A stretch of 46,612 nucleotides of DNA. It comes from Pseudomonadota bacterium. GTDB taxonomy: Bacteria; Desulfobacterota; Desulfobacteria; Desulfobacterales; JBDRRP01. The translations under genes were made by a program, and so were the position numbers. This document shows, in pieces, positions 16,452 to 37,732 of the stretch; within the stretch, counting starts at the first letter, position 1; each line of letters opens with the position of its first letter. The DNA lies in assembly GCA_043825735.1 (NCBI GenBank), contig JBDRRP010000152.1, positions 62,001 to 108,612 of the forward strand, written 5' to 3'. The notes under the pieces were generated by a model, which worked only from the letters and a program-made list of their open reading frames with translations, did no database searches and was not told the origin of the DNA.

Positions 16452-16474
16452 TTCTTTTGTTTGGAGGTAATTCT

Positions 16475-17704: not shown

Positions 17705-18087
17705 TCAAGAGAGAATTTGTTATAAAAATTTTTACTATTTTAGGGAAAAATTCATTATTTAGATTATATGACATATTTACAATACTATTATTTTCTCTTT
17801 ATACAAACATATTGGCTCAAGAAAAAATTAACAATAATCTGCCAATTGATTTGATTTTATTATCTAAGTATACCACAAGCTTATTATCGATTATTTTCTT
17901 CTATTTAATATACCACAAATATAAAGAGAATTTTGAGAGTGCATGTAGATTAATTAACGATACGCCACAAGCTCCTTCTGAACTTTATAAAGATGCGCTT
18001 GATAATGATATGAATAAATATGTTATATATTACATATGTTTCATATTTTTTACTGTAGCGTTTGTCATTTTAAAGTTGAAATTTTAA
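17701..18087 (+). CDS. Small membrane protein (about 3 hydrophobic segments), unknown function
   Basis: ATGA overlap with the methyltransferase. Hydrophobic stretches are IFTILLFSLY, LLSIIFFYLIY and YVIYYICFIFFTVAFVIL. Confidence 0.7.
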   Translation: MIKREFVIKIFTILGKNSLFRLYDIFTILLFSLYTNILAQEKINNNLPIDLILLSKYTTSLLSIIFFYLIYHKYKENFESACRLINDTPQAPSELYKDALDNDMNKYVIYYICFIFFTVAFVILKLKF

Positions 18088-18092
18088 CTATT

Positions 18093-18965
18093 ATGCAAAT
18101 CTTCATCAATGTCTTTATAACTACTTCCACTATTCTACTTATTTCTTTTTCGTTTTCAATTATTTATTCCAGCATAAAATTCTTTCATATTGCCCATGCC
18201 ATTACGATTACTATTGGTGCTTATTTAAACTTTCTCTTCTATATTCAAATGGGTTTGCACATATGGTTTTCGATACCCCTTGCTGTTACAGGGGCATCAT
18301 TTATAGCAGTTATTTTTGAATTATTAATTTTTAAAAAATTGCGCAAACGAAATGCATCTTCATGGAAAATTTTGATCGCTTCTCTTGGTATCTACGTTGT
18401 AATGCAAAATCTTATTTCTTTAATATGGGGTGATGAGACCAAAAGCATCCGGACTTGGTCTGTAAAAACAGGGCATAATATTTTAGGTGCTTATATTACG
18501 GATGCACAAATCGCTTCAATTGTAATCAGCATCATACTATTGATTGGTGGTATAATGTTTTTACATCTCACATCACTGGGAAAACAAATCAAAGCCGTTT
18601 CATCCAATCCGGAATTGAGCAATATATTTGGCATTTCATCGAATAAAATTATCCTTTCCAGTTTTATTATAGGATCGGCCTTGGCTTCAATTGGGGGGAT
18701 CCTAATTACTTTGGATACGGATATGAACCCCTCCATGGGTTTTCGGATTCTCCTTTATGCGGCAGTGGTCATGATCATTGGCGGAGTAGGCAGTTATAAA
18801 GGGCTTATAGGCGGAGCCTTATTACTTTCAACAGCACAGCATCTCTCTGCTTATTACATTGATGGAAGGTGGATGGAAGCCACGTCTTATGTTATTTTAG
18901 TTCTTTTTTTAGTCTGGAAACCACTGGGTTTCAGTGGTAAGCGCTCTAAAAAATTAGAGATATGA
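18093..18965 (+). CDS. livH: Branched-chain amino acid-type ABC permease, LivH-like
   Basis: FFHIAHA, LIASLG, LGKQIKAVSSNPELSNIFGI and IIGGVGS. ATG at 18093 preferred. Confidence 0.85.
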   Translation: MQIFINVFITTSTILLISFSFSIIYSSIKFFHIAHAITITIGAYLNFLFYIQMGLHIWFSIPLAVTGASFIAVIFELLIFKKLRKRNASSWKILIASLGIYVVMQNLISLIWGDETKSIRTWSVKTGHNILGAYITDAQIASIVISIILLIGGIMFLHLTSLGKQIKAVSSNPELSNIFGISSNKIILSSFIIGSALASIGGILITLDTDMNPSMGFRILLYAAVVMIIGGVGSYKGLIGGALLLSTAQHLSAYYIDGRWMEATSYVILVLFLVWKPLGFSGKRSKKLEI

Positions 18966-18966
18966 A

Positions 18967-19821
18967 ATGGAATACCTCCTGCATCTACTAATATTCATAT
19001 CACTTTACACCATCCTGTCACAAAGCTTAAGTCTGACGGCCGGATATTCCGGATTGATGTCCATCGCCCATGCCGCATTTTATGGCATCGGCGCTTATAC
19101 GACTGCAATCTTAACTGTAAACTATGGCTTACCATTTTTGTTTACCCTGCCTTTAGCCATTATTGTTTCCGGTTTAACCGCCTTAATCATTTCCATAATT
19201 TCAATCAGGACAGTAGATGACTATTTTATTGTTATCACCCTTGGCATCCAGGTTGTTGTGTTTTCCATTATGAACAACTGGCAGGCATTTACGAGAGGCC
19301 CTCTTGGAATACCGGGTATTCCTCCAATAACTATTTTAGGATTTCCAATTGATAATCATCTCTCTTTTTTTGTATTTAGTTTGTTTTTTGTGGTCCTGAT
19401 TTGGTTCATATTAAACAATATAGTCTGTTCGCCATTTGGGAAAATTTTAATAGCATTGAGTGAAGATGAGATATTTACAAAAAGCCTTGGCAAAAATGTA
19501 TACAAGGCAAAAGTTATTTCATTTGTCATCAGTGCTATGTTCGCCTCAGTAGCCGGCGTTTTATATGCGCATTACATCAGTTATATTGACCCGACAAGCT
19601 TCACTATCGATGAATCTATTTTCATCCTGAGTATTGTTATCATTGGAGGTATGCGCGATTTAAAAAGAATCGCAATTATAGCCGCTTTGTTAGTACTTCT
19701 TCCTGAAGCATTACGTTTCGTTGGTATACCAAATAGTATAGCCGCTAATTTGCGCCAAATTTTTTACGGCACGGGGTTGATTGTGTTTATGTTTCGAAAT
19801 AATGACCAATTGCGCACTTAG
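18967..19821 (+). CDS. livM: Branched-chain amino acid-type ABC permease, LivM-like
   Basis: GYSGLMSIAHAAFYGIGAY, DYFIVITLG, TRGPLGIPGIP, SPFG, YIDPTSF and LPEALRF. Confidence 0.88.
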   Translation: MEYLLHLLIFISLYTILSQSLSLTAGYSGLMSIAHAAFYGIGAYTTAILTVNYGLPFLFTLPLAIIVSGLTALIISIISIRTVDDYFIVITLGIQVVVFSIMNNWQAFTRGPLGIPGIPPITILGFPIDNHLSFFVFSLFFVVLIWFILNNIVCSPFGKILIALSEDEIFTKSLGKNVYKAKVISFVISAMFASVAGVLYAHYISYIDPTSFTIDESIFILSIVIIGGMRDLKRIAIIAALLVLLPEALRFVGIPNSIAANLRQIFYGTGLIVFMFRNNDQLRT

Positions 19822-19975
19822 TTGTAATTGGAAAATAGAAAAAAGGCCGATAACTTTTATTCTTAGTATTTTTAATTGTTCTATCTGACAATTAGAATAA
19901 GCCAAACTAAAAAATTATGGGCATCCTTTCATTCCAATCTCAAGTACGACCTCACCCTCAACGGGAACCAGTTCA

Positions 19976-21853
19976 ATGTCAATAGGGAAACCGGGAGCCC
20001 CACGCGTAGCGCTTTTAAATATGCCGTTTTCTACATCCCGCCGACCGTCTATTCAAACCGGTCTACTCCAGGCGATTATTGAAAAAAACGGTTATTACGT
20101 AAAAACTCACTACTTAAATTTGAAGTTTGGCGCTCGCATTGGTTGGGATCTAAATGAAAAAATTTGTCAGGGATTTTATCGTCACCTGCTGGGCGAATGG
20201 ATTTTTTCATATGCTGCATTTGGAAACGAATCGATCGAAAGTAGCCGTTACCTTGGAGCCTATGCCAACCACCTTACCGGATATTGTGAAACGCTTGGGT
20301 GCAACACTGAATTCCTAACCGAACTACGTATGCGAGTAGCGCCGGCTTTTATCCAGGAATGTCTTGAAACAGTAGCTTGGGAAGATTACGATGTCATTGG
20401 TTTCAGTTCAGTGTTCCAACAAAACTGCGCCGCCTTAGCCTTGGCGCATCTTTTAAAAAATCATTTCCCACAAATCTTTATTGTTTTTGGGGGCGCTAAT
20501 TTCGAAGATGAGATGGCTCTGGAATATGTGCAGACTCTTGCGTGGATTGATTATGCTATCATCGGTGAAGGGGATGAGGCTTTCCCAATGCTGTTGGAGC
20601 GTTTGACAGCCGGTGATCTAAAACCCGACATGCCTGGCATTGCTTACAGGAAGGGTGAAGAGATTTTTTATCGTGGCCGTTCACCAATGGTTAAAGATCT
20701 TAACGCCTTGCCAGAGCCTAATTACGATGACTTTTTTGCCACTGCGCTGGCGGTGGAACTCCCAGGTACTGTGGTAGGCTGTGAAGTTGCGCTGCTTTTT
20801 GAATCATCACGTGGTTGTTGGTGGGGGGCGAAGCACCATTGCACCTTCTGTGGGCTTAATGGACTATGCATGACCTTCAGACCCAAATCTCCTGAGCGAG
20901 TTTTGGCAGGTATTGACGAACTCTCGCGCCGGTATGGTGAAAATTCTTTCGCAGCAGTGGATAACATTTTAGATAATCGATATATACGTGCGGTTTTTGA
21001 CCCATTATCTAAACAAAAGACTGACTACACCTTCTTTTATGAGGTGAAAGCCAACCTCACACCGACTCAGCTTCGCCGCATGGCACAAGGTGGTGTCCGC
21101 TTTATACAGCCGGGTATTGAGAGTCTTAGTACCCACACACTCAAATTGATGCAAAAAGGGACGACCGGCATTCAAAACGTGCTGCTTTTGAAATGGGCGG
21201 TCTATTATGGAATGTCTGTAAACTGGAATATCCTTTACGGTGTACCAGGGGAGAACCCGGAAGACTTTGAAACACAATACGAAACAATGAAACTTATTCC
21301 GCATTTACCTCCCCCCCGAGGATTGATACACATTTGGCTTGAGCGGTTTAGTCCAAACTATATTAAAGCTGAAGAAATGGGCTTTCAAAACATACGCCCC
21401 TTCGGGTCATATGCCTGTATTTACCCGGAATATATATCACCACACAAAATTGCGTATTTTTTTGATTACGACCTAACGAAAAACTATTCTGATGAGGCCC
21501 TTAAACCAATGAGCGATTATATCAGATGGTGGCGGGGCGCATGGGATAATCAGAAAAAGCCTTATTTGGTCTATCTCCGTGGTGCTGACCGAATGACGGT
21601 CATTGACGGCCGCAGGCCCGATATGCCAAAATCATATATATTCCATGAACCGGCTGTGCTAATCTATGAGTACTGCAATTTAAAATACAAAAGTGCCCGA
21701 TTGATTTCAAAGCACCTTCGTAGTAGGTTCGGCTTAGACACTGATGAATGCAATGTGCAATCTGATTTAGATAAATTCATAATGCTTGGCCTTATAATGA
21801 AAGAAGATTCTAATTATCTTAGCTTGGCCCTGCCGGCTAACCCCCATTGGTAG
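19976..21853 (+). CDS. RiPP-maturation B12-binding/radical SAM enzyme (TIGR03975-like C-methyltransferase family)
   Basis: NMPF..RPSIQTGLL, LLGEWIF, FQQNCAALALA, GGANF, GEGD, ESSRGCWWGAKHHCTFCGLNG (Cx7Cx2C), VDNIL, YEVKANL, QPGIESLS, WNILYGVPGE and ERFSP, with a C-terminal wHTH/RRE-like region. Confidence 0.9.
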   Translation: MSIGKPGAPRVALLNMPFSTSRRPSIQTGLLQAIIEKNGYYVKTHYLNLKFGARIGWDLNEKICQGFYRHLLGEWIFSYAAFGNESIESSRYLGAYANHLTGYCETLGCNTEFLTELRMRVAPAFIQECLETVAWEDYDVIGFSSVFQQNCAALALAHLLKNHFPQIFIVFGGANFEDEMALEYVQTLAWIDYAIIGEGDEAFPMLLERLTAGDLKPDMPGIAYRKGEEIFYRGRSPMVKDLNALPEPNYDDFFATALAVELPGTVVGCEVALLFESSRGCWWGAKHHCTFCGLNGLCMTFRPKSPERVLAGIDELSRRYGENSFAAVDNILDNRYIRAVFDPLSKQKTDYTFFYEVKANLTPTQLRRMAQGGVRFIQPGIESLSTHTLKLMQKGTTGIQNVLLLKWAVYYGMSVNWNILYGVPGENPEDFETQYETMKLIPHLPPPRGLIHIWLERFSPNYIKAEEMGFQNIRPFGSYACIYPEYISPHKIAYFFDYDLTKNYSDEALKPMSDYIRWWRGAWDNQKKPYLVYLRGADRMTVIDGRRPDMPKSYIFHEPAVLIYEYCNLKYKSARLISKHLRSRFGLDTDECNVQSDLDKFIMLGLIMKEDSNYLSLALPANPHW

Positions 21854-21889
21854 AACCTGACAAGTGACATAAAATGATGGAGTTATGAT

Positions 21890-22123
21890 ATGCAGAAAAA
21901 TCAGCTGAAAGAAATTATTGCTCTGGATACAGTGAAATCATCGGATTTCACCGATGAATTACCGGCTTCTGAGCAACTCGCTCTGAGATGGGTTTTAGAA
22001 CGTGCAAAAACAAAGTATACACAATCGCATTCATTCAATCGGGCTTGCAATTCGTCACCTTGTGCAGAACTGCGCTTTGGGCCTCCCGGTCGTGAGCTTG
22101 CATGGTCTGAAGACCCATACTAA
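21890..22123 (+). CDS. Candidate RiPP precursor peptide (77 aa)
   Basis: GGAG RBS at 21879-21882, starting 36 nt after the rSAM stop. The N-terminal IIA....K...F..EL......AL pattern resembles NHLP-type leaders. The C-terminal part has 2 Cys and several aromatic residues. Confidence 0.55.
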   Translation: MQKNQLKEIIALDTVKSSDFTDELPASEQLALRWVLERAKTKYTQSHSFNRACNSSPCAELRFGPPGRELAWSEDPY

Positions 22124-22180: not shown

Positions 22181-22226
22181 ATAAAACGGCCCGATGCGCG
22201 CGTCACGCATCGGGCCGTAGCTTTTT
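22181..22226. terminator. Intrinsic terminator, probably bidirectional
   Basis: Perfect 13-bp stem ACGGCCCGATGCG (22186-22198) / CGCATCGGGCCGT (22206-22218), with an A-run on the left and a T-run on the right, between convergent genes. Confidence 0.85.
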
Positions 22227-22247: not shown

Positions 22248-23201
22248 TCAGTCCACCACGGGCCTCGGCAGCACCTTGGCCTGCGCGGCGATCTCGGGGA
22301 CCTTGTGCTCCCACTCGATGGCCATGAGATGAACCCCGTGCACGCCCTTCATCTCCTTGAACTCGGCGATCTGCTCACAGGCGATGTTGATCCCCTCCTG
22401 GGCCACGTTCTCTTTGCCGGCCCCCTGGAGCCGCTTGATGATCTCATCGGGAACGTCCATCCCGGGCACCTTGCTTTTCATGTACTTGGCCATACCGACG
22501 CTCTTCATGGGCGTAACGCCGGCGAGGATGTACACCTTTTCGGTGAGACCCATGTCGTTGGCCTGGCGGATGTACTCCCTGAACTTCTCCATATTGTAAA
22601 TACACTGGGTCTGGATGAAGTCCACGCCCGCTTCGATTTTCTTGGCCAGCCGGTGTACCCGCCATTCAAAAGGATCGGCAAAGGGATTGGCCGCCGCACC
22701 GATAAACATTTTCGGCGCCTCGTCGATATCGCCGCCGCTGAGAAACTTACCCTCGTCTCTCATGGTCTTGACCATGTTGATCAGCTGGGTGGAATCGATG
22801 TCGAACACGCCTTTGGCCGTGGGGTGGTCACCGAAAAGGCAGTGGTCGCCCGACAGGCACAGCATGTTTCTCACGCCATGGGCGTAGGCGCCCAGGATGT
22901 CACCCTGCATGGCCAGCCGGTTGCGGTCACGGCAGACCATCTGGTAGTTGGGTTCCAGCCCCTCCTGAATGGCGATGATGGCGGCGGCCCAACTGGACAT
23001 GCGCACCACGGCGGTCTGGTTGTCGGTGATGTTGACCGAATCCACATTCCCCTTGAGAAACCCTGCCTTGTGCCTGACCTCTGCCGCATTGGCGCCGCGC
23101 GGCGGTCCCAGTTCGCCGGTAAATGCGAAGTGACCTGCCTTGAGAATTTTTTCCAGGTTGCTTCCTGCTTTATAACCGTTTGGCTCTGTCATCTGCGTCA
23201 C
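22248..23201 (-). CDS. metF: Methylenetetrahydrofolate reductase large subunit
   Basis: [52 protein letters not shown] and GVHLMAI. Confidence 0.93.
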   Translation of the reverse strand: MTQMTEPNGYKAGSNLEKILKAGHFAFTGELGPPRGANAAEVRHKAGFLKGNVDSVNITDNQTAVVRMSSWAAAIIAIQEGLEPNYQMVCRDRNRLAMQGDILGAYAHGVRNMLCLSGDHCLFGDHPTAKGVFDIDSTQLINMVKTMRDEGKFLSGGDIDEAPKMFIGAAANPFADPFEWRVHRLAKKIEAGVDFIQTQCIYNMEKFREYIRQANDMGLTEKVYILAGVTPMKSVGMAKYMKSKVPGMDVPDEIIKRLQGAGKENVAQEGINIACEQIAEFKEMKGVHGVHLMAIEWEHKVPEIAAQAKVLPRPVVD

Positions 23202-23275
23202 CTTGATCTTATGGATTCATGTCCCCGGGTGTCGACTGTCTTTCGCAGTGTTGTCTCCCGTATCGTCCCGGATCC

Positions 23276-23950
23276 CTATTCCACTTTTTCCGGCTTCTTG
23301 TAACCGGGCTGGATGAGAGTCCGCGGGACACTGTCTTTCCAGCCGGTTACGGCATAGATCTTCTTGATGTTGTCCAGCCGCCCCTGAGCGGAAAGCCGCT
23401 CATAGATCTTGAACCAGGCGCACGGCTGCTCCTGGCTGATCTCGCACTTGCCCTTGTTGGTGCCGCCGCAGGGGCCGTTGTAGAGCCCCTTGGCGCACAT
23501 GGTCACCGGGCAGATGCCGCCGGTCCAGCCCAGCACGCAGCTCTGGCAGGAACGGCAGCGCTCTTCATACCAGCCCACCGCCTGGTTGACGGCCAGACCC
23601 GAAGTGTTGACGCCCGGAAACACCGGCGTGTCCGGGAACCGCTCGGCCAGAAACTGGATACCGACCCCGCAGGCCATGGAGATGAGCGCATCATAGCCGC
23701 CGACCTTGTCATCCAGTGCCGCCAGGTACTCCCGGTCGCATTGGCGCTCCACCGTGTGGGCGGCAATTTCGATAGGGTTGTCTGCCAGTTTTCTGGCCAT
23801 CTCCAGTTCGGCGTTGAGCACGGCCACCTCTTTCTCGCCGCCCGCCAGGCAGACCGATACACAGGTGCCGCACCCTACGTTCAGGACGCGCTTGTAGTCC
23901 TTGAGCATTTCCATTATTTCATCAAAGGGTTTCCGTTCTGCAACTATCAT
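23276..23950 (-). CDS. metV: Methylene-THF reductase small Fe-S/Zn subunit
   Basis: GCGTCVSVCLAGG, RQC, MACGVG and CRSCQSCVLGWTGGICPVTMCAKGLYNGPCGG..GKCE...CAW. It lies directly upstream of metF. Confidence 0.92.
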   Translation of the reverse strand: MIVAERKPFDEIMEMLKDYKRVLNVGCGTCVSVCLAGGEKEVAVLNAELEMARKLADNPIEIAAHTVERQCDREYLAALDDKVGGYDALISMACGVGIQFLAERFPDTPVFPGVNTSGLAVNQAVGWYEERCRSCQSCVLGWTGGICPVTMCAKGLYNGPCGGTNKGKCEISQEQPCAWFKIYERLSAQGRLDNIKKIYAVTGWKDSVPRTLIQPGYKKPEKVE

Positions 23951-24003
23951 GGTTCCTCCTGTCGCGTGGATGGGTGCTCCGTCAGAACCTCGCGGGTGGA
24001 TCG

Positions 24004-25317
24004 TTATTCCTGTTCCGGGTGAAAAACCAGTACGTCCTTGAGATCGTCACCGAGATATTCGCGCTCCTTGGGACCGAGGATGCCCAAAGACAGGCACATC
24101 AGTGTCCACAGATGCACGGTCTGCCAGGGATGATCGCGCACATCGCTCAAATCGTGGATCTGGGCGTGGCAGTTATGGCACGGTGCGATGCAGTAAGCGG
24201 CACCGGTGGCCAGGATCTGCTCGGCTTTGAGCCGGCCGTATTCACGGCGCTCCTCGTTGAAACCCGACTGCAGAAATCCGCCGCCGCCGCCGCAGCAGTA
24301 GTTGTTGCAGCGGTTGGGCGTCATATCGATAAAGTTCTCTTCCCCCACCACCGATTTGACCACAAAGCGCAGGTCCTCGGCAATGGGATCGCCGTAACTT
24401 TTTCGCACGATCTGGCAGGGGTCCTGAACCGTGAACTTGATCTTGAGATCCTTGTTCCAGTCGCTGTTGACCTTGAGCCTGCCCTCGCGGATCCATTTGG
24501 CATAATACTCGTAGATATTCTTGACTTCGAACTTGTGCGCGATGTTGAATTTTTTCAGTCCGGCCCGGACTGAGAAAGTGACATGCCCTCACTCGGTGTT
24601 GAGAAATGTCTTGCACCCCAGCGCATCGGCCTGCCCCGCCGTGGTGCGAGTGATGTGCTCCCAGGCGGCGTTGTCGGCGAGAAACAGGCAGTAATTCTCA
24701 CCGGCCCATCCCTTGCTGCCGTACGTCCAGTCGACACCGGCCAGGTGAAGGAGCTTCCACAGCGGCACCATCTCGTCCGGCTCGGTCACCGGCTCACGGC
24801 TGTTCTGGTTCAAGAAGAATTCGGCGCCCTCTTTGTCGATGGGTGCCTGCATGTCGGCAAATTCCGGCTGAGCCTCCTGGTATTCGGCCAGCACGTCTTC
24901 CACCACGAAGCGAAAATCCTCCGGTGTGGCGCCCATGGCGCTGGTGCTGTCGTTTCGAAGCGCCATGTCGCAGGAGTCGAGAATCCCCTTGGGGCGCGTC
25001 TCCCGCGGCCAGCTAGCCCGGACGTTGAAAACGAGCTGCGGGATATCGATTTTCATAGGGCAGACGTAGATGCAGCGCTGGCACATGCTGCACATCCAGA
25101 CCCATTTTGTTGATTTGATTTCTTTGTCCATCCCCAACGCCGCCATTCTCAAAAACTTGCGCGGGTCCATGCCCTCCAGGCCCGAGGCCGGGCAACCCGC
25201 CGTACAGGCGCCGCAGGTCAGGCACAGGTTCAGGTTGCCGCCCTCGGGCAGCAATGCCTTGACCGTGTCGATGAACGGGCTTTTGTTCTTTGTCAGCGTG
25301 ATGGCTGTATCATCCAT
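24004..25317 (-). CDS. HdrD/DsrK-like Fe-S oxidoreductase (HdrC-like 2x[4Fe-4S] plus CCG domains), selenoprotein, 437 aa
   Basis: CLTCGACTAGCP and CSMCQRCIYVCP, then FLNTE-TGA(24589-24591)-GHVTFSV, which is the ECGH motif with Sec. The same frame continues into QDPCQI, NYCCGGGGG and PCHNC of track ORF 24004-24408. Confidence 0.88.
24555..24573 (-). promoter_or_regulatory. Bacterial SECIS hairpin for Sec codon 24589-24591
   Basis: Perfect 8-bp stem UCAGUCCG-GGC-CGGACUGA starts 15 nt after the UGA. Confidence 0.8.
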
Positions 25318-25340
25318 GGCATCCTCCGGACAGTGAGGCG

Positions 25341-25754
25341 TTATTTCCCTTTCAGCGGATTGGGGCCCAGCGCCGTGATATGCTCGGTCATCTCCTTGGC
25401 ATAGGCCGCAAAGGTGGGGCCTTCACCGGAGGAAAGGTTGTACATTCTGACCCGATCCCCCTCGATGCCGATCTCTTCAAGAAGCATTCGGACGTGGTTC
25501 ACCCGCTCACGGCAACGCAGGTTGCCCTCGTTGTAGTGGCAGGCGCCTTCAAGGCAGCCCACGCAATAGGCACCGTCGGCCCCTTTCTGGATCGCGCGCA
25601 GCAAATGCATCACATCTACTTTTCCGGTACAGGGGACCCGGATGATCTTGACGTTCGTCGGGTAATTCAGTCGCATGGAACCTGCCAGGTCCGCTGCGGA
25701 ATACCCTCAGTATTCGCAGCAAAACGCGATGATGGTGGGTTCAAATTCCGCCAT
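25341..25754 (-). CDS. mvhD: MvhD/FlxD-like [2Fe-2S] protein, selenoprotein (Sec16), 137 aa
   Basis: ATG at 25754 overlaps the hdrA stop (TAATG). It reads MAEFEPTIIAFCCEY-TGA(25707-25709)-GYSAADLAGSMRLNYP...VPCTGKVD...VGCLEGACHY. Confidence 0.9.
25677..25692 (-). promoter_or_regulatory. Bacterial SECIS hairpin for Sec codon 25707-25709
   Basis: GGACCU-GGC-AGGUUCC lies 14-15 nt after the UGA. The stem is shorter than in the other five. Confidence 0.6.
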
Positions 25755-28700
25755 TACACCCCCTCCGCCAGCAAGGCATCAATTTTACAGGTTAGCTGAT
25801 CGTCTTCGTAGAAACTCAACTGAATGGTCTGGCGCGGGCACACGGCGGTACAAACGCCGCACCCGTGGCAGAGGGCCTCGTTGATTTCGATGACTTTTTT
25901 CTCGGCATTCCACTGAGGAACCCCGAACGGGCAGGACCGCACACAGGTGAGGCACTTGACGCAGTAATCCGTGTCGACCTTGGCGGTGATGGCCGAAAGT
26001 TTGATGACGTCATTGGCCAGGAATGTGGTGGCCCGCGCCGCCGCGGCCTGGGCCTGGGCGATGGTCTCGCTGATCAGTTTGGGGCCATGGGCCGTGCCGC
26101 ACAGAAACACCCCGTCACTGGGCATGTCCACAGGCCGGAGCTTGACGTGGGCTTCCAGGAAAAAGCCCTCGGGGTTGCGGTTGAACTTCATAATGCCGCT
26201 CAATTGATCGGTATCCGCGGCGGTAAGACCGGCGCTGAGCACCAGTTTATCGGCGCTGATGGCCAGCGGCTGCTGCAGGATATGGTCTTTTACCGATACC
26301 ACGAGCACGCCGCCGTCCACCGATACAACTGGCGGAGCGGTCTCGTCAAACCGGATGAAGATCACGCCTTTTTCCCGCGCTTCCTTGTAGTAATCCTCGA
26401 GCAGGCCGTATGTGCGGATATCCCGATAAAGAATGAAAACCTGAGCATCGGGGTTTTTCTTCTTGAGGGTCAGGGCGTTTTTGACCGCCGCCTGACAGCA
26501 GATCCGCGAACAATTTTCATTTTCCGCGTTGCGTGAGCCCACGCACTGGATCATCACGACCGAATCCAGACCTTCGGCACCGGTTTCCTCAAGGATATCG
26601 GTCAACCCGACCTGGGTCACCACCCGCGGGTCCTGGCCGTAGAGAAACTCGGTGGGCTGATATTCATTGGCGCCGGTGGCGACGATGATCACGCCGTGAT
26701 CGATCTTCTGGGGCTCGCCCTCGGCGCCCACGCGCACCTCGGTAGTAAAACTCCCCTTGAACCCTTCGAACCCGGTGATGGTCGCATCGGTGAGCACCGA
26801 GATCTTGTCATTGGCGGTGACATCACCGATGAGCTGTTTGAGATAGGCCTGGACGTCCGCACCCTCGATGGTGTGGTGAAGCTTCCGGGCGAATCCGCCG
26901 AGCGCGGTATCCTTTTCCACCAGGGCGACCTCAAATCCCTGTCTGCCCAGCCCCAGGGCCGCATTCATCCCGGCGATGCCGCCGCCGATGACCAGGGCGC
27001 GCTTGTTGATGGGCACCACCTTGCCTTCGAGCTGCTTGAGCGTGCCGGCCCGGGCCACGGCCATGCGTACCAGGTGCTTGGCTTTCACGGTGGCGGCAGT
27101 GTGATCGTTGGAATGAATCCACGAGTTCTGGTTGCGGATATTGGCCATCTCAAAAAGGTATTTGTTAAGTCCGCAAGCCTCCAGGGTCTCCATGAACATG
27201 GCTTCATGGGTCTTGGGGCTGCAGGAGGCCACCACCACCCGGTTGAGCTGCTCCTTGATGATGATTTCCTTGATCTTGTCCTGGGTATCCTGGCTGCAGG
27301 TAAACAGGTTCTGATCGGAAAAGACCACACCTGGCAGACTGGCGGCATATTTGGTGACGTCCGGCACATCGACGATGCCGCCGATGTTGATCCCGCAGTT
27401 GCACACGAATACGCCGATGCGCGGGGCTTCCCCGCTGACGTCCTTTTGCTCGGGCAGCTCGATTTTCTCGATGTCGTTGCCTCTAGCCCCGGCCAAAGCG
27501 CCTCCGGCCAGACAGGCGGCCGCACTGGCCTCGGTCACCGAACTGGGAATGTCCTTAGGGCCCTGCATCACGCCGCAGGTGTAAAATCCCGGCCGTGAGG
27601 TGGCGACAGGATCAAAGGGGCTGGATTTGGCGAAGTTGTATTTGTCGAGTTCAATGCCCATGCGCGCGGCCAGCTGGGCGGCATCGGGCTGAACCTGCAG
27701 TCCCACCGAAAGCACCACCATGCTGAAGACCTCTACATGCATGGCCCCGGCTTCATCCACATATTTCACTTCGAGATCGCCGCTGCCGGGCAACTCGGTG
27801 ATGGTGTGGATCCTTGCCTTGACAAACCGCACGCCGTCCTTGTTCTTGGCGCGCAGGTAGTACTTTTCGTAGTCTTTGCCGAAGGTCCGGATGTCCATGT
27901 TGAAAATGGTGCAGTCCAGATCGCCGTGGATGTGTTCCTTGGCGATCATGGCCTCCTTGACGGCGTACATGCAGCACACCGAGGAGCAGTACCCGTTGCC
28001 GCACCGGTTGGTGTCCCTGGAGCCCACGCACTGGAACCAGGCGATGCGCCGCGGCTCCTCACGGTCCAGGGGGCGCATGACATGGCCGAAATAGGGGCCG
28101 GAAGCGCTCAGAATGCGCTCGAACTCCTCGCTGGTGACCACGTTGGCATATTTGCCGTAGCCCCAGAAATCGAGACCCGAGGGATCATAGCCCTCACTGC
28201 CGGTGGCCATGATCACCGAGCCCACCGTTATCTGGGTCTCCCGGCGCTGGTCGCTGTAGTTGACCGCCTTGGCGATACACATATTTTCGCACAGGCCGCA
28301 GCCGATGCAGGTGTCGGTGTCGATGGCAAAGGCCAGCGGCACGGCCTGGGCGTATTCGATATACGTGGCCCGGCGGTCGTCGAGCTTCTTGTTGTAGGCA
28401 TTGACGGCGGTCACCGGGCAGTGACGGGCGCACTCGCCGCAGCCGGTGCACGCGACCGGGTCGATGTAGCGCGGGTGGTTGACCAACGTCACCTGGAAGT
28501 CTCCGGGCTTGCCGTCCACGCGATCTACTTCACTGCACATGACCAATTCGATGTTAGGGTGCCGGCCGACCTCGACCAGTTTGGGCGAGATCACTCACAT
28601 GGCGCAGTCATTGGTTGGAAAGGTCTTGTCCAGCCGGGACATCATCCCGCCGACGGTGGGCGATTTGTCCACCAGGTAAACCTTGTACCCGGCATTGCCC

Positions 28701-28783
28701 AGATCCAACGAGGCCTGCATACCGGCGATACCGGCACCGACCACCAGCACCGAACCGCTTGTTTTGCCTTGCGCTGCTCCCAT
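25754..28783 (-). CDS. hdrA: Tandem-module HdrA-family flavoprotein, selenoprotein (Sec63), 1009 aa
   Basis: Track ORFs 28595-28783 and 25754-28594 share a frame across [23 protein letters not shown]. There are two FAD-binding GxGxAG modules and ferredoxin CxxCxxCxxxC motifs. Confidence 0.93.
28562..28579 (-). promoter_or_regulatory. Bacterial SECIS hairpin for Sec codon 28595-28597
   Basis: CUGGUCG-AGGU-CGGCCGG starts 15 nt after the UGA. Confidence 0.8.
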
Positions 28784-28792
28784 GACAACTCC

Positions 28793-29542
28793 TTATCGTG
28801 CCACAAAAATGGGTTTATGGTCTTCCATTCCTTTGTACTCGACCATACTTCGCTTTTCCATATCGGCCAGAAGGTAGGAAATCTGTTTGAGCGCCAGACC
28901 GATATTGGCGTTGATCTCCCGCGGCGATTTGCAGCCGCCCTTGATGGCCTGCAGGATCAACTGGATGTGGTATTCGCGCTCCAGTATCCCGTCGAGAATG
29001 CATTCAAACGTGTCCGCATCCCACCGGCGGCCGTAGACGTCGCCCTTGGCGGTGATCTTGACTTCCTTTCCCACGGTCCAGCGCAGGGTCTCTCCACTGA
29101 GCGCCGCTTCGATGGCGTCCAGTTCAAGTCGGTAAGTCGCAGGGTCGAACTTGCCCAGACTGCGGATGGTGTCGGTGACCGTGGTGGCGATCTCGGCAAA
29201 CCGCTGAGCTTCGGCCGACGAACACCAATAAAGGTGCAGCCGGTCTTTCCCGATACCGGAAACGGCCAACAGGTTTCGGGTCATGCGGATCTTCTTTTCG
29301 GCTTGGACATTACCTTCCAGGTAATGGCAGTCACCGATGTGTCAGCCGGCGACCAACACGCCGTCGGCGCCCTCCTTGAGCGCCTTGACCACAAACAGCG
29401 GATCCACCCGGCCCGAGCACATCACCCGGACCGTTCTCAGGTTGGGCGGATATTGCAGACGGGACACGCCCGCCAGATCGGCGCCGCCGTAAGCGCACCA
29501 GTTACATAAAAAAGCGACAATCTTCGGTTCAAAATCTCCCAT
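28793..29542 (-). CDS. mvhD: MvhD/FlxD-like protein with C-terminal extension, selenoprotein (Sec67), 249 aa
   Basis: [15 protein letters not shown]...VMCSGRVD...GVLVAG-TGA(29342-29344)[11 protein letters not shown], in frame with track ORF 28793-29284. Confidence 0.9.
29308..29326 (-). promoter_or_regulatory. Bacterial SECIS hairpin for Sec codon 29342-29344
   Basis: Perfect 8-bp stem CAUUACCU-GGA-AGGUAAUG starts 15 nt after the UGA. Confidence 0.8.
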
Positions 29543-29593
29543 CGATGCACCTGCCTCTATACGCGGTTACAGGTTGTGTTTCCCTGGGGCCGT

Positions 29594-32500
29594 TTAGCTC
29601 ATGACGGCACAGACGGTGGCGCCGATCTGCGCGTCTCTGAAATGGAGCATGTCTATGGCTTTCTGCGGACAGGTGGCAGCGCACAGCCCGCAGCCCTTGC
29701 ACGATGCCGCAATGTTTCTCGCACGCAGCCCCTTGCCCTCGGTCTCGTCCATGGTGATCGCCCCGAAGGGGCACACCTCGGCGCACAGACCGCATCCGAT
29801 GCATTTTTCCGTATCGATCTGGGATACCGTGGGGGCGATGTCGATGGCCGCGCGGGAAAGTACGGTCGCCGCCCGACTGGCCGCGGCCATGGCCTGGGCG
29901 ATACTCTCATCAAGGGCCTTGGGATAGTGGGCGATGCCGCACATGAAAATCCCGTCGGTGGCAAATTCCACCGGCCGCAGCTTGGCATGGGCCTCCATGA
30001 AAAAGCGCTCCGCGTTCATGGGGACCTTGTAAAGCTCTGAGATGGTGGTGCCGTCGGCCGGCTCAATCGCCGTGGCCAGGTTCACCAGGTCGGCCGCGAT
30101 GGTGACTTCCTGCTGAAGGATCGGCTCAAAGACCGACACTTGCAGGCGATCGCCCGCCGGGGTGACCACCGGCTTGCGATCGAGGGTGTAGCGGATAAAG
30201 ATGACTCCCAGTGCGCGGGCTTTTTTGTAAAGCAGTTCGCGCTCGGCGTAAGTCCGGATGTCCCGGTACAGGACATAGACGCCGGCCTCCGGGTTTTGCT
30301 CTTTCACCCAGATGGCCTGGGATACGGCGGTGGTGCAGCAGATCCGCGAGCAGTAGGGGCGCTTGTCATCCCTGGAGCCGACACACTGAATAAAGACCAC
30401 GCTTTCCGCGGCCTTCACCCGTTCGAGGTCATGTTCGATGTCGTGCCACCGACCCACCCGGTCGCTTTTGCCAAAGCCGTACTCCTCGGTCGTTGTGGCC
30501 TGGCCGCCGGTGGCCACGATTACCGCCCCGTGGCTGATGGTCCGGGCGTCCGCGCCGTCCATGATGACGGTGGTCTCGAAATTGCCGACAAATCCCAAGG
30601 CCGCCGTGGGCGATGCATTGAGCAGCACCTCGATCTTGGGGTGGTTCTCTACGCGATTGACCAGATCGGCCACAAAGGGTGCCACCGCAGTGCCGCTCCA
30701 GGTTTTGGAAACGTCCAAGGCGGCGCCCCCGAGCTTGCCGGAGCGCTCTACGATAACCGCCGGAAACCCCTGATCGGCCAGATTGATCGCGCTGGTCATG
30801 CCCGCCACGCCGCCGCCGATGATCAGAGCCGTCTTGTTGACCGCCACGGACAGCTCCGGAATCGACTCCAGCAGAGCGGCCCGGGACACGGCCATGCGCA
30901 CCAGGTCCTTGGCCTTGCCGGTGGCCGTGGCCTTGTCGGTGGAATGGACCCAGGTGCACTGATTGCGGATATTGGCCATCTCGAACAGGTACGGGTTCAG
31001 GCCGGCGCCGCGGATGGTTTCCTGAAACAGCGGCTCGTGGGTTCTGGGTGTGCAGGCCGCCACCACGATTCGGTTGAGGTTCTGCGCCTTGATCACTTCG
31101 ATCATCTTGTCCTGAGTGTCCTGGCTGCAGGTGAAGAGGTTTTCCTCCACATAGGCCACACCGGGCAACTGTCTGGCGTATTCCGCAATGGCAGGGACAT
31201 CGGCAAATCCGCCGATGTTCACGCCGCAATTGCACACGAACACGCCGATGCGCGGCCCCTGCCCGGCAACGTCTGTCTGTGTGGGAAAGGCGGCGCTTTT
31301 TACCAGAGTATCCCGGGCCGAGGCCAGACTCACGCCGGCGCAGCAGGCCGCCGCACTCGCCTCCATTACCGACTGAGGAATGTCCTTACAGCCCTGAATG
31401 ACGCCGGCCACGTAAATGCCGGGTCTGGATGTGGACACCGGCGTGGTATCATTAGTTTTCACAAACCGGTGCTCGTTGAGCTCCAGACCCAGTGTTTTGG
31501 CCCCTTCCAGCGCCTTGATCGAGGGCTCCATCCCGACGGACAAAACAACCATGTCGTAGGTTTCCACGACCCGTCGGCCATCATCTGAGGCATATTCCAG
31601 ATTCAGGGTACCGCTGGGATCGGCCTGGGTGATGGAGTGCACCCGGGAGCGGATGAACCGCACGCCGTCGCTTTTGGCACGATTGTAATATTTTTCGAAA
31701 TCCTTGCCGTGGGTGCGCATGTCCATGAAAAAAATGGTGGACTCGAAATCGCCGCCGATGTGCTCCTTGGCGATAATCGCCTCCTTGATGGCGTACATGC
31801 AGCATACCGACGAGCAATACGAATTGTCGCAGCGGTTGAGATCCCTGGAGCCCACACACTGGAGCCAGGCAATCTTCTTGGGCTCGGCCTCGTCGGAGGG
31901 CCTGAAGATATGCCCGCCCGAGGGCCCCCCGGCAGACAGGATCCGCTCGAACTCGAGGCTGGTGACCACGTTGGGCAGCTTTGCGTACTGGTAATGATCG
32001 AACGCCGAGGGGTCAAAGGCCTGAAGTCCGGCGGTAAATATTACCGAGCCCACCGCCACGGTGACCGCTTCGGGTTTTTCATCGAATTTGATAGCAGCCG
32101 TGGGGCAGAACTTTTCGCAGGCCTTGCACTTGCCTTTTTTGAAATAAATGCAGTGCGCGGCGTCGATGGCGTACTTCAGCGGCACCGCCTGGGGATAGGG
32201 CACGTAGATGGCTTTGCGCTTGGCAAGGCCTTCATCATAGGCATTGTCGACTTTCGCCGGGCATTTCTCGGCGCAGGTGCCGCAGGCGATGCACTTGTCC
32301 ATGTCGACGTATCTGGGGTGCTTGGTGATGGAAACGGTAAAGTTGCCCTCTTGCCCGTCGATATGGGTCACTTCCGAAAGGGTGAGCAGCTCAATGTTCG
32401 TGTGCCGGCCGACCTCGACCAGTTTGGGTGAAATAATTCACATCGCGCAGTCGTTGGTGGGAAAGGTCTTGTCCAGCTGGCTCATCACGCCGCCGATGGC

Positions 32501-32617
32501 GGGCGACTGTTCCACCAGGTAGACGTAGAAACCGGAATTGGCGAGGTCGAGCGCAGACTGCATGCCTGCAATCCCCCCGCCGACAACCATTACCGCTCCA
32601 TTGACGTTGGTGGCCAT
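29594..32617 (-). CDS. hdrA: Tandem-module HdrA-family flavoprotein, selenoprotein (Sec60), 1007 aa
   Basis: ATG at 32617 after [18 protein letters not shown](32438-32440)[16 protein letters not shown] is in frame with track ORF 29594-32371. Confidence 0.93.
32405..32422 (-). promoter_or_regulatory. Bacterial SECIS hairpin for Sec codon 32438-32440
   Basis: CUGGUCG-AGGU-CGGCCGG starts 15 nt after the UGA. Confidence 0.8.
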
Positions 32618-32855
32618 CGAAGTCTCCTTTGAAGTTTCGGTCGCCTGAAGACAGGCAAAAAAATACCGCCGGTTCCAGCAGGCAACGGCAGAAAAGTACT
32701 CCGGCAACACGTACTGAACATCATTTAGTTGCTACGGGCCCAATTAGTTGATAACCTGCCTGGAGTCAAGGGTAAAACCGGCCCTGCGTCACACGCAATG
32801 GCGCCCGGTGCCCGTCTTCCAGCGGCCGCCGACGCGTCCCGCTGGGGAAAAAACC

Positions 32856-34412
32856 ATGACCGCTCGCGCTCAACCCCCGATTATCAACATCGGCCTCGTC
32901 GGCGGCGGCCCACTGTGCCTGGAGCTGCTGGAGAAAACACGGTTCAATTATCACGCCGCCGGTGTTCAGACCCCCATCCTGGCCGTTGCCGATCCTGAGG
33001 ACGACGCTCAGGGAAAACGGATGGCCGATGAAATGGGGCTGCTCACCTTCTCGGACTACCACGATCTTTACGACCGGCGTTACAACATCCACCTGATCAT
33101 CGTTCTCACCCCCGATGCGAATATTCTCGAGGATATCCTCAATACCCGCCCCCAACGGATCCGAATCCTGTCCTATCACGTGTTCAAGATTTTCTGGGAA
33201 ACCATCGCCCAGGAGGAGCGCAAACTCAGAGAACAGAAAACGGCCATGAAGACCATTCTCAACGGCATCCAGGACTTCATCCTGGTTATCACACCGGAGA
33301 TGGAGATCGTCGAAGCCAATGAGGCGTTCTTCGAAAAAATGGACTTTACCCGGGAGGAGGTCATCGGGAAAACCTGCCATGGCATCTTAGAAAACCGAGA
33401 CCACCCGTGCCCTCCCCCGCTTTTCGAGTGTCCCCTGAAGCGGGTAGTGCGCGACAAGCGCCAAGCCTGTCAGGTGCGTACCCGTACCGATAAACATGGC
33501 GACCAGCGGCACTTTGAAGTCAACGTCTACCCCGTCTGGGAAAAGGACGGGAAAATCTCTAAATTCATTCACATCAGCCGTGACATCACCCAAAGGGTAA
33601 AAGCCGAGGAAGAGATCACCCGCCGTCTCGAACAGATGGTGCAGGACCGCACGCGGGAACTCAAACAGACCCATGAACAATTGCTGCACCAGGACAAGAT
33701 GGCCTCGCTGGGAAAACTGTCAGCGTCCGTCGTCCATGAAATCAACAACCCCATCGCCGGCATCTTAAACCTGATCATGCTGATGAAACGGGTGATGGCT
33801 GAAGAGAAGATTCCGGAGGCCGAAGCGCTGAAACCGTTTCACGGCTACATGGATCTCATGGAGACGGAAACCCGGCGCATCAGCCGGATCGTCTCCAACC
33901 TGCTGGCCTTCTCCCGCCAGTCCCCCTTGGCGATGCGCACGCTCAATGTGAACCGCCTCATCGAGCGCACCCTGATTCTCAATGCCAACCTGCTGAAACT
34001 CAACAAGGTCAAGGTAGAGACCACACCGTTTGGCGAAATCCCCGACATCATGGGCTCCGAGGATCAGCTCCAGCAGGTATTCATGAACCTGGTGTCCAAC
34101 GCGGCCGAAGCCATGGAAGGCAACCGCGGCGGCCGTCTGGTCATCCGCACGACACATCGACCCGAGACCGCGCAGGTCTTGGTCGCATTCAGTGATACGG
34201 GGCCGGGCATCCCGCCGGAACATCGGCAACGGCTGTTCGAACCGTTTTTTACCACCAAGAAAAAAGGCAAGGGGGTCGGTCTCGGCCTGTCCGTGGCCTA
34301 CGGCATCATCCAGGAGCATCACGGACAGATCACCGTTGACAGCTCGCCTGACGGTGCGATCTTCACCGTGTCGCTCCCCGTGGAGGGAAAATGGGAACCA
34401 CCAGTATTCTGA
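32856..34412 (+). CDS. Cytoplasmic sensor histidine kinase with N-terminal Rossmann-like and PAS domains
   Basis: INIGLVGGG...ILAVAD (Rossmann-like), PAS (ANEAF..EVIGKTCH, RDIT), H-box VHEINNP, N-box NAAEA, DTGPGI and GVGLGL. No TM segment seen. ATG at 32856 preferred. Confidence 0.92.
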   Translation: MTARAQPPIINIGLVGGGPLCLELLEKTRFNYHAAGVQTPILAVADPEDDAQGKRMADEMGLLTFSDYHDLYDRRYNIHLIIVLTPDANILEDILNTRPQRIRILSYHVFKIFWETIAQEERKLREQKTAMKTILNGIQDFILVITPEMEIVEANEAFFEKMDFTREEVIGKTCHGILENRDHPCPPPLFECPLKRVVRDKRQACQVRTRTDKHGDQRHFEVNVYPVWEKDGKISKFIHISRDITQRVKAEEEITRRLEQMVQDRTRELKQTHEQLLHQDKMASLGKLSASVVHEINNPIAGILNLIMLMKRVMAEEKIPEAEALKPFHGYMDLMETETRRISRIVSNLLAFSRQSPLAMRTLNVNRLIERTLILNANLLKLNKVKVETTPFGEIPDIMGSEDQLQQVFMNLVSNAAEAMEGNRGGRLVIRTTHRPETAQVLVAFSDTGPGIPPEHRQRLFEPFFTTKKKGKGVGLGLSVAYGIIQEHHGQITVDSSPDGAIFTVSLPVEGKWEPPVF

Positions 34413-35734
34413 TCGTCGACGACGAGCGCATCATGAGAGAATCCCTGGCCGGCTGGCTGGAACGCGACGGTCACAGCGTCAAGACCGCCGCCAGTGGTGA
34501 GGAGGCACTGGAACGGTTCCAGAAGGAGCGATTTCAGATTCTGCTGGTAGATATTAAAATGGAGGGCATCAGCGGTCTGGAGGTGCTCAAGGCCGTCAAG
34601 GAGCAGGAACCCGACACGGCCGTCGTCATGATCACCGCCTACGGCGCGATTTCCACAGCCATCGATGCCATGAAAAACGGCGCGTGGGATTATCTGCTCA
34701 AACCTTTCGACCCCAACGAGCTCGGGGTGCTCATTGACAAGATCCTCGATCATCAGGCCCAGGCCAGGGAGAACCTCTACCTGCGGGAGCAGTGGAAGGA
34801 GCAGACCCGTTTCGAAAGCATGATCGGCCAGGCCGAACCCATGCAGCGGGTGTTTGACATGATCCGCGACGTGTCGCCCACCGATGCCACAGTGCTCATC
34901 ACCGGTGAGACCGGAACCGGAAAGGGCCTGGCCGCCAAGGCCATCCACTCCAACAGCCCCCGGTGCGAAGGGCCGTTTGTGGTTGTCAACTGCGGCGCCG
35001 TACCCGAGCACCTCATGGAAAGCGAACTTTTCGGCCACCAGAAAGGCGCGTTCACCGATGCCCGGGAAACCCGCAAGGGGCGCCTGGAGCTGGTCCATGG
35101 GGGGACCCTGTTTCTCGATGAAATCGGTGAAATCAGCATGCGGATGCAGATCGATCTGCTCCGGGTGCTGGAAGATAGGGTGTTTTACCGGGTGGGGGGC
35201 ACCCAGCCCATCGACGCCGATTTCCGGGTCATCGCCGCCACCAACCGGGATCTGGCATCGGCCATCCGGGAGCGCAGATTCCGGCAGGATCTCTTCTACC
35301 GGCTCAACGTCGTCCAAATGCACATGCCGCCCCTGAAGTCGCGCAAGGCCGACATCCCCCTGCTGGCCGACCACTTTTTGCGCCGCTTTGCCCAGGAAAC
35401 CAACAAACCCGTGGACGGATTCACCCGGGATGCCATCGATGAGCTGATGCTCTACGACTGGCCCGGCAACGTGCGGGAACTGGAAAATGCCATCGAGCGC
35501 TCGGTAGTGGTCGGCAAGGGCCGAAAAATCACACCGGCCGATCTGCCGATTCTGTGTGCGATCACACCGCCCGCATCGACCGGCACCGCTCTGAAAGATG
35601 TGGAGCGCACCCATATCGCCCGCATTCTGGATGAGTCCCAGTGGAACATTTCACGGTGCGCGAAGCTGCTGGGTGTCGATCGATCCACCCTGTATCAGAA
35701 GATCAAACGATACGGACTCGAGAAGCCGGACTGA
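34391..35734 (+). CDS. Sigma54-dependent response regulator (NtrC/AtoC family)
   Basis: REC domain, GETGTGKG, ESELFGHQKGAFTDA, LFLDEI, WPGNVRELEN and HTH. It overlaps the kinase gene. Confidence 0.95.
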   Translation: MGTTSILIVDDERIMRESLAGWLERDGHSVKTAASGEEALERFQKERFQILLVDIKMEGISGLEVLKAVKEQEPDTAVVMITAYGAISTAIDAMKNGAWDYLLKPFDPNELGVLIDKILDHQAQARENLYLREQWKEQTRFESMIGQAEPMQRVFDMIRDVSPTDATVLITGETGTGKGLAAKAIHSNSPRCEGPFVVVNCGAVPEHLMESELFGHQKGAFTDARETRKGRLELVHGGTLFLDEIGEISMRMQIDLLRVLEDRVFYRVGGTQPIDADFRVIAATNRDLASAIRERRFRQDLFYRLNVVQMHMPPLKSRKADIPLLADHFLRRFAQETNKPVDGFTRDAIDELMLYDWPGNVRELENAIERSVVVGKGRKITPADLPILCAITPPASTGTALKDVERTHIARILDESQWNISRCAKLLGVDRSTLYQKIKRYGLEKPD

Positions 35735-35816: not shown

Positions 35817-36377
35817 ATGACGCGGGCAAACGGCACCATGGTCCTGTCGCCCATCGGACTGCTGCCCGAGGAGCTCCTTTCCGAAGTGGCAACAGCGGTC
35901 ACCCGGGCCTTTGGTTGCCACACGGCGGTGGTCTACCTCCTTGAAAATGCGGATTTCGCATTTGACGCACTGCGCCACCAGTACCATTCCACCGCCATTT
36001 TGGAGCGCCTTGCCGCCAGCAGCCCGGTTCACGCAGACAAGATCCTTGGCCTGACCACGGTGGACCTGTTCATCCCCATCCTCACCCACGTTTTCGGCGA
36101 GGCGCAGCTCGGCGGCAGGGCCTGCGTGGTGTCCACCTGCAGGTTGCTGCTGCCCGCGTCACCACTGCCGGGCGGCAGCCGGTACCAGCGGATCAGCAAG
36201 GAAGCGATCCACGAACTGGGCCACACCTTTGATCTGCGGCACTGCCGGGACCCGGCCTGCGTCATGCATTTCTGCCGCAGTGAAAATGACGTGGACCGCA
36301 AATCGAGCCGGTTCTGCCGCTACTGCCAGGTGCTTTTGGATGACGTTTTGACACTGCACCGCAGCAACCCCGGCTGA
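35817..36377 (+). CDS. Archaemetzincin (peptidase M54) zinc metalloprotease
   Basis: RHQY, VFGEA, KEAIHELGHTFDLRHC...CVM..DVDRK..FCRYC. Confidence 0.9.
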   Translation: MTRANGTMVLSPIGLLPEELLSEVATAVTRAFGCHTAVVYLLENADFAFDALRHQYHSTAILERLAASSPVHADKILGLTTVDLFIPILTHVFGEAQLGGRACVVSTCRLLLPASPLPGGSRYQRISKEAIHELGHTFDLRHCRDPACVMHFCRSENDVDRKSSRFCRYCQVLLDDVLTLHRSNPG

Positions 36378-36404
36378 CCGTGTGCAGATCACATCCGATG
36401 AAGG

Positions 36405-36620
36405 GGTGTCGCAGGTATCCGCTTTTTCGGCCCCGACTTCTTCCGATGATCGCTGTTAGCACCCAGCCGCCGCAGCGTGACCGGACCCGGCGCAAAGAAT
36501 CGGCGGCATGAACGACGATGGTCGTCGACTGCCGACGGTCAAATCCTTTATCCCGGCGCCGGCGGCGGTGCTCAGGTGCCTTTTGTTGTCGGGGCCGAAA
36601 AAGCGGATGCCTGCGACGCC
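36405..36620. repeat. 216-bp element bounded by 33-bp inverted repeats (REP-doublet/MITE-like or structured RNA)
   Basis: Arms 36405-36437 and 36588-36620 are reverse complements at 31 of 33 positions. It lies between convergent genes. Confidence 0.8.
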
Positions 36621-36759
36621 GATGACACTTGGAAACATGATTTTCGGCGACAATTCCGTCCGGTAATGTCAGCCGCGCCCCGACTGCCAACGCACACCCA
36701 GATCCCGTCGCCGCCTTTCATGCGAAATGGCCCAGAGGCCCGGACTGCGGCGCGCGCGT

Positions 36760-37686: not shown

Positions 37687-37732
37687 GGCGCCACCTCCTC
37701 GCCACGGCATTACGGATACGCACCTGATCGGG

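Follow-up and report, generated by a model that had tools for sequence, protein, structure and literature searches.

We analysed a window of 46,612 nucleotides (nt) of contig JBDRRP010000152.1 from a Desulfobacterales bacterium, which carries on its minus strand, from 32617 to 22248, a predicted operon of seven co-oriented genes in the order hdrA1-mvhD1-hdrA2-mvhD2-'hdrD'-metV-metF, when TGA is read as selenocysteine (Sec). The gaps between the genes are, in order, 51, 9, -1, 23, 53 and 83 nt. A preliminary description of this DNA had reported seven tightly spaced genes on one strand, five of them with Sec codons, that include two double-module HdrA proteins of ~1000 aa and two different MvhD proteins; the coordinates and the single in-frame TGAs bear this out (Table 1). 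It had also placed one terminator at the end of the operon. A 13-bp hairpin is indeed present 3' of metF, with a short T tail on the operon strand, but a terminator score was obtained on the plus strand only, and terminators were no commoner in the window than in shuffled sequence (8 versus 10.8). The likeness to the Hdr-type reductase of Moorella and Sporomusa held: metV adjoins metF, and mvhD and hdrA lie in the same cluster, two of each, as in the 'type IV' methylene-tetrahydrofolate (THF) reductases defined in PMC8760232 and surveyed in PMC6085437 (here and below, statements about published work extend to the parts of each paper that were available).

Table 1. Genes, Sec codons and flanking features of the operon (positions in the window)
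Feature	Position	Strand	Description
hdrA1	29594..32617	-	1007 aa double-module HdrA selenoprotein, Sec60; order: FAD module 1 with inserted ferredoxin, HdrA N-terminal-type domain, FAD module 2, C-terminal ferredoxin; E224/K278 in module 1, module 2 Lys lost; GltD/NAD(P)H insert absent
hdrA1 TGA	32438-32440	-	residue 60
mvhD1	28793..29542	-	249 aa MvhD, Sec67; ~115 aa C-terminal extension, probable winged helix at its end
mvhD1 TGA	29342-29344	-	residue 67
hdrA2	25754..28783	-	1009 aa double-module HdrA selenoprotein, Sec63; E222/K276 in module 1, module 2 Glu lost; GltD insert absent
hdrA2 TGA	28595-28597	-	residue 63
mvhD2	25341..25754	-	137 aa MvhD, Sec16
mvhD2 TGA	25707-25709	-	residue 16
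DsrK-like gene ('hdrD')	24004..25317	-	437 aa soluble DsrK/TmcB/HmcF-class Fe-S protein
DsrK-like gene TGA	24589-24591	-	residue 243
metV	23276..23950	-	224 aa; 13 invariant Cys
metF	22248..23192	-	314 aa methylene-THF reductase; likelier start ATG 23192, GTG 23201 possible
Hairpin after metF	22186..22218		13 bp, 30 nt 3' of metF; possible bidirectional terminator
PAS histidine kinase + sigma-54 response regulator	32748..35734	+	divergent from operon; candidate regulator, role inferred

Each of the five selenoprotein genes contains one in-frame TGA, and metV and metF contain none. Among the matches in the 80 best MetV-related loci that cover the respective site, the TGA is kept at the equivalent codon in 77 of 78 MvhD2, 71 of 71 HdrD-like, 60 of 60 HdrA2-type, 27 of 27 MvhD1 and 15 of 16 HdrA1-type sequences. 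A conserved hairpin resembling a Sec insertion sequence lies 3' of each UGA; within the 5-7 codons that it spans, the third positions show ≥90% conservation, compared to 6% of third positions in a 140-codon stretch of metF. In addition, the genome encodes two tRNA-Sec and two selB above cut-off. A conserved UGA at a Cys site, a downstream hairpin and the sel machinery are thus all present, as in established bacterial selenoproteins. Chance read-through or broken genes are ruled out by the conservation of the TGA across relatives together with the conserved third positions in the hairpins. Cys forms occur at the Sec site as well: among 120 listed MvhD1 homologs 102 have Cys (13 have Trp and 5 no match to the motif), and some DsrK-like paralogs carry no stop there.

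The 'hdrD' gene encodes a protein with an HdrC-like N-terminus, two cubane motifs and one complete CCG motif (C301, C341, C342, C380, C383), and a single CCG motif is likewise found in 66 aligned relatives. Sec243 sits within TEUGH, and TE[U]GH is invariant among relatives. While HdrB and HdrD have two CCG motifs, DsrK, TmcB and HmcF have one, together with a T/GECGH motif whose Cys is probably catalytic (PMC10861901). The protein therefore has the motifs of the DsrK/TmcB/HmcF class, with Sec in place of Cys. It does not have the two CCG motifs of methanogen HdrD, and the operon does not encode the HdrC plus HdrB, with two CCG (non-cubane) motifs, of the type IV reductases. Thus, of the fused HdrD/DsrK-like subunit first suggested, the DsrK-like part stood (TEUGH and the class match) and the HdrD or HdrC-HdrB fusion part did not (one CCG motif). 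The best NCBIfam matches are TmcB, HmcF and DsrK, yet the protein is not the DsrK ortholog of a DsrMKJOP complex, as it scores 114 bits against a cut-off of 400 and the operon has no membrane DsrM-like gene. When its model (pLDDT, the predicted local distance difference test score, 80) was used in a fold search, EtfD and HdrB were matched and no DsrK chain was, which confirms the fold and not the substrate. Sec at the proposed catalytic Cys is the best evidence on the role of this subunit and points to thiol chemistry on a DsrC-type substrate. The proposal that DsrC is the likeliest thiol partner is also in agreement with the single CCG motif and TEUGH of the DsrK/TmcB type.

The two HdrA proteins are 51% identical. 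In both, the Sec aligns with Cys197 of Methanothermococcus thermolithotrophicus HdrA (position counted from the alignment), which we take to be a ligand of the partner subunit's cluster; if so, each double-module chain would be an internal pseudo-dimer. The double module itself, which had been set apart from the acetogen complexes, is already described for Sporomusa ovata and Moorella thermoacetica (PMC9430772). S. ovata HdrA is a 101-kDa protein with two thioredoxin reductase (TrxR) domains, one of which has the E356/K409 signature; in M. thermoacetica HdrA both flavin domains have it, and a GltD insert is present (PMC9430772). We scored this signature by alignment on 78 proteins, including the HdrAs of the window. 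The E356/K409 equivalents were present in module 1 of all 78, and module 2 was without the Lys in all 19 proteins of the HdrA1 lineage and, by a call that depends on the alignment, without the Glu in all 59 HdrA2-lineage proteins. The bifurcation signature is thus found in at least one flavin domain of HdrA, as in the type IV enzymes. The GltD-like NAD(P)H insert is absent from both HdrAs of the window, as only scraps of ferredoxin and FAD fold matched when they were compared to the insert of a neighbouring HdrL, which leaves the operon without an obvious site for NAD(P)H. Trees of HdrA segments, from which we omitted the divergent L085 and any protein that was partial or frameshifted, gave two lineages, one paired with MvhD1 and the other with MvhD2, with insert-bearing and insert-free forms in each. 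The idea that the HdrL of five-gene operons is a fusion of the tandem HdrAs was unsupported: three of the four trees separated HdrA1 and the insert-bearing first HdrA from HdrA2 and the single HdrL, and the fourth, of a short N-terminal segment, grouped the HdrAs differently.

How widespread is this layout? We surveyed synteny, a check put forward with the preliminary description, in the best 80 of 164 MetV-related loci, which are labelled mostly Desulfobacterales and some Desulfobulbales; two were too short upstream, leaving 78 informative loci. The layout is common, with the DsrK-like gene directly before metV in 71 of the 78. The mark of the tandem form, mvhD1, was found in 29 of the best 80 loci, and the first HdrA, where visible in these, lacked the GltD insert in 8 (the layout of the window; one frameshifted) and had it in 12. 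About 30 of the best 80 loci have a single insert-bearing HdrL instead. When we sampled 201 genomes of the order, the long MvhD1 was matched in 46, at 51 places. All 20 of the places examined (several in genomes already in the 80-locus set) lie within hdrA-mvhD1-hdrA-mvhD2-metVF operons, and the DsrK-like gene is part of 18 of these. Fourteen are without the insert, three carry it and in the other three it is not visible. In some relatives unrelated split hdrA genes follow the orthologous metVF, and the same Sec-containing DsrK-like gene (76-83% identical) is kept in three of four examined. Natural variants of the operon thus differ in whether they have the NAD(P)H insert, in the number of HdrAs (one or two) and in whether they include the DsrK-like gene. 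Among the named cultured species that have the five-gene form are Desulfopila aestuarii, Desulfoprunum benzoelyticum and Desulfosediminicola flagellatus (L093, L118 and L124). In six related operons mvhD2 is tandemly duplicated (L081, L087, L089, L109, L121 and L125). As for the C-terminal extension of MvhD1, 9 of the 26 members matched HTH_24 (E ≤ 0.1), the single-sequence structure prediction of MvhD1 had a pLDDT of 37, too low to be of use, and a structure search with the extension gave no solved-structure match.

With a genome of 6.8 Mb, the host is a sulfate reducer of the Desulfobacterales type, and the expectation of a sulfate-reducing organism with the Wood-Ljungdahl pathway was confirmed. 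Besides dsrA and selB, the genome encodes a separate true DsrK (contig C86) and a DsrC in which the two C-terminal Cys are kept, together with two fhs and two acsB copies, the latter both interrupted at contig ends and for this reason scoring under the cut-off. We compared 32 genomes of ≥90% completeness: of the 25 that have a MetF match (E ≤ 1e-100), 22 gave an acsB hit, as did one of the seven that lack such a match, a count that includes paralogs and the host's own genome, and in which kin are not independent. The operon does not adjoin acsB, and at least four further metV-metF loci are present in the host, on contigs C152, C41, C88 and C129. One is a second metVF operon at C152:58963-66408 (window 1-4408, minus strand) with genes for a MetF-like protein (3533-4408), a Sec HdrL with a GltD insert, a Sec MvhD, MetV and MetF, which lies head to head with the main operon in two relatives (L038, L045). 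Contig C41 (L136, 7665-13854) carries a Sec-free paralogous operon of MetF-like, double HdrA, MvhD, metV and metF genes, from which a sigma-54 activator gene diverges; this operon may be a back-up that does not depend on selenium. On contig C93 (L140, 6191-16319) the canonical dsrC lies 3' of a cluster that encodes, besides one NuoF-like protein, Sec forms of HdrA and MvhD and Flx-like proteins.

We propose, at what we judge to be an even chance, that the seven genes code for a form of the Hdr-linked type IV methylene-THF reductase found in sulfate reducers, in which methyl-THF oxidation feeds DsrC, perhaps with coupling to ferredoxin. During acetyl-CoA oxidation by the reverse Wood-Ljungdahl pathway, MetF would oxidise methyl-THF, and the electrons would pass from MetF to MetV, to MvhD2/HdrA2 and on to the Sec site of the DsrK-like subunit, where Sec243 and the single non-cubane cluster would reduce oxidised DsrC. 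The synteny with metVF, the motifs of the DsrK-like protein, the signature in module 1 of HdrA and the pathways of the host speak for this. The genes, Sec sites, motifs, synteny and host pathways are direct observations, whereas co-transcription, the physical complex, the direction, DsrC as the substrate, the electron path and any bifurcation are inferences. The E0' of methyl-THF is about -200 mV, so that neither NAD+ nor ferredoxin is reducible unaided (PMC9430772). DsrMKJOP reduces DsrC trisulfide with menadiol (about -70 mV) as the donor (PMC10861901), and an acceptor that is reducible by menadiol should therefore accept electrons from methyl-THF downhill. Should the two modules of each HdrA form an internal pseudo-dimer, in which one flavin carries the signature, electron flow down to DsrC may be linked to the reduction of a low-potential carrier. 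For this operon we would expect the carrier to be ferredoxin or a partner that docks on HdrA1-MvhD1, and for the relatives with the GltD insert NAD(P). By our own arithmetic, 1:1 bifurcation would need an acceptor above about -80 mV if the low branch is NAD+, which is plausible for the insert-bearing relatives. A bolder version, which we consider a long shot, is a single seven-subunit selenoenzyme with its two HdrAs in series, bifurcating in tandem and sending ~3 electrons to DsrC trisulfide for each one to ferredoxin. We calculate from -200 and -450 mV that such a 3:1 split breaks even with a DsrC acceptor near -117 mV, where 1:1 is impossible. If true, it would be a soluble energy-saving link from the reverse Wood-Ljungdahl pathway to sulfite respiration in abundant sediment bacteria.

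Several observations weigh against methyl-THF oxidation that feeds DsrC. The DsrK-like protein is well under the curated cut-offs for DsrK, TmcB and HmcF, its gene is missing from 7 of the 78 operons, a same-genus genome (G001) among them, and two stand-alone Sec paralogs in the host (74-81% identity) mean that this subunit has a life outside the operon. With at least four other metVF loci and no acsB neighbour, the operon may not be the catabolic copy. The potential of DsrC trisulfide is stated as unknown (PMC10861901), and a 1:1 split to ferredoxin would, by our arithmetic, need an acceptor above about +50 mV, which is unlikely. In S. ovata, MetVF was purified without Hdr/Mvh and used reduced ferredoxin directly; Hdr/Mvh bound in pull-downs only, and neither co-reduction nor thiol stimulation was seen (PMC9430772). 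Purification of MetVF on its own had been named beforehand as a result that would speak against the complex, and it has been obtained, though in an organism other than the host. The 140-kDa MetVF-only, ferredoxin-dependent species of S. ovata (PMC9430772), the stand-alone paralogs and the orthologous metVF without an hdr gene within 20 kb in some genomes (L050) would instead fit co-regulated separate enzymes, that is, MetVF acting alone with ferredoxin or a membrane acceptor, and the HdrA-MvhD-DsrK-like proteins acting as ferredoxin:DsrC oxidoreductases on a shared promoter. We regard this as unlikely, as all 20 examined mvhD1 loci are linked to metVF and the S. ovata pull-downs show MetV-HdrA and MetF-HdrA/HdrB contacts (PMC9430772).

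The same wiring could also end at another acceptor, with the Sec subunit acting on a different thiol or persulfide carrier, or with a quinone end as proposed for S. ovata. The sub-cut-off DsrK score, the lack of a membrane DsrM-like gene in the operon and a pair of GcvH-like proteins that travels with the locus in four examined relatives would suit this, although the pair seems to lack a lipoyl lysine at the usual position. S. ovata has methyl-THF:AQDS (anthraquinone-2,6-disulfonate) activity (PMC9430772), whereas it is the TECGH class that has been linked to DsrC (PMC10861901), and we think another acceptor rather improbable. To much the same degree we doubt that the complex is mainly reductive, with reduced ferredoxin plus reduced DsrC or NAD(P)H driving methylene-THF reduction for CO2 fixation or methyl supply. 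The characterised relatives are all acetogen enzymes assayed reductively (PMC9430772, PMC8760232), and HdrA-metF clusters of syntrophic sulfate reducers were interpreted as carbon-fixation enzymes (PMC10553843), but ferredoxin-driven reduction is already strongly downhill, and the DsrK-like subunit would not be needed for it.

The operon bears on the question of how completely oxidising sulfate reducers dispose of methyl-THF electrons. It also offers a candidate, DsrC at a catalytic site marked by Sec, for the still missing second substrate of the Hdr-type methylene-THF reductases. With MvhD1 in 46 of the 201 sampled genomes, the answer would apply widely in sediments.

Orthologs of the divergent kinase (53-61%) and regulator (69-75%) adjoin the operon in several relatives. 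No sigma-54 promoter was found upstream of hdrA1 by a simple pattern, the promoter scan of the window was at about the shuffle level (4 versus 3.6), and Rfam and tRNA scans of the window gave no matches. Eleven RNA runs were listed as matching the window, all with a small share of words (≤0.08). Contigs from four of these, at 85% likeness, covered 25-26 of 30 bins, nearly all within the operon, and a few spanned gene junctions; being mostly <95% identical, they represent relatives' RNA and are uninformative on strand, co-transcription or expression in the present organism.

Beyond the regulator genes, window 35817-38725 holds an archaemetzincin-like gene and two genes whose products (316-330 aa) combine a Cys-rich N-terminus with a GcvH-like domain, from which the usual lipoyl lysine seems to be missing. 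This block travels with the kinase/regulator genes and the metVF operon in L037, L041, L046 and L101. Between the two metVF loci of the window, a block at ~9000-22000 has a low GC content (40% versus 59-60% in the flanks) and is probably an inserted island. On its plus strand it contains an AAA ATPase and an S8 peptidase gene (9956-13685), which resemble the IteA/IteS anti-phage pair under the cut-offs, and, at 13847-21853, a further group of genes. This group starts with genes of a branched-chain-type ABC transporter, among which lie those for an EgtD-like methyltransferase and an unknown protein of 128 aa; 3' of them comes a B12 radical S-adenosylmethionine methyltransferase of ribosomally synthesised and post-translationally modified peptides, which scores above the TIGR03975 cut-off.

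Finally, we compared the operon to known systems. No description of a tandem-HdrA, DsrK-like and MetVF layout was found among the papers examined, nor was metF mentioned in the available parts of PMC5109826 and PMC5947623; HdrA genes beside Wood-Ljungdahl genes are described in sulfate reducers (PMC10553843). With HdrCBA-MvhD-MetVF of S. ovata (PMC9430772) the operon shares metVF and mvhD, and a double-TrxR HdrA without the GltD insert and with the signature in one flavin domain; it differs in its two HdrAs and two MvhDs, the ferredoxin inserted in module 1, the five Sec codons, the sulfate-reducing host and one DsrK/TmcB-class protein in place of HdrC and HdrB. MetFV-HdrABC-MvhD of M. thermoacetica (PMC9430772, PMC8760232) follows the same module logic, and its GltD-insert HdrA resembles the HdrL of many relatives, while the HdrAs of the window lack the NADH-oxidising insert, carry the signature in one flavin domain instead of both, and are not accompanied by HdrB. 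DsrK, TmcB and HmcF (PMC10861901) share with the DsrK-like protein two cubane motifs, a single CCG motif and the T/GECGH motif, in which the protein of the window has Sec for Cys; it also scores under their cut-offs and has no membrane cytochrome b partner in the operon. In Desulfobacterium autotrophicum HRM2, Sec forms of HdrA, HdrL, HdrD4 and MvhD (PMC2702500) show that Sec forms of every subunit type are known in the order, although the available text states no link of these genes to metVF. The hdrABD-mvhD-metVF operon of marine Chloroflexi (PMC5736913) likewise has a fused Fe-S/CCG subunit in place of HdrB and HdrC, and is set apart by its single HdrA and by the description of that subunit as an HdrC-HdrB fusion. 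Thus, the operon is real, conserved and uncharacterised, and a variant of the acetogen enzyme complex rather than a novel system.

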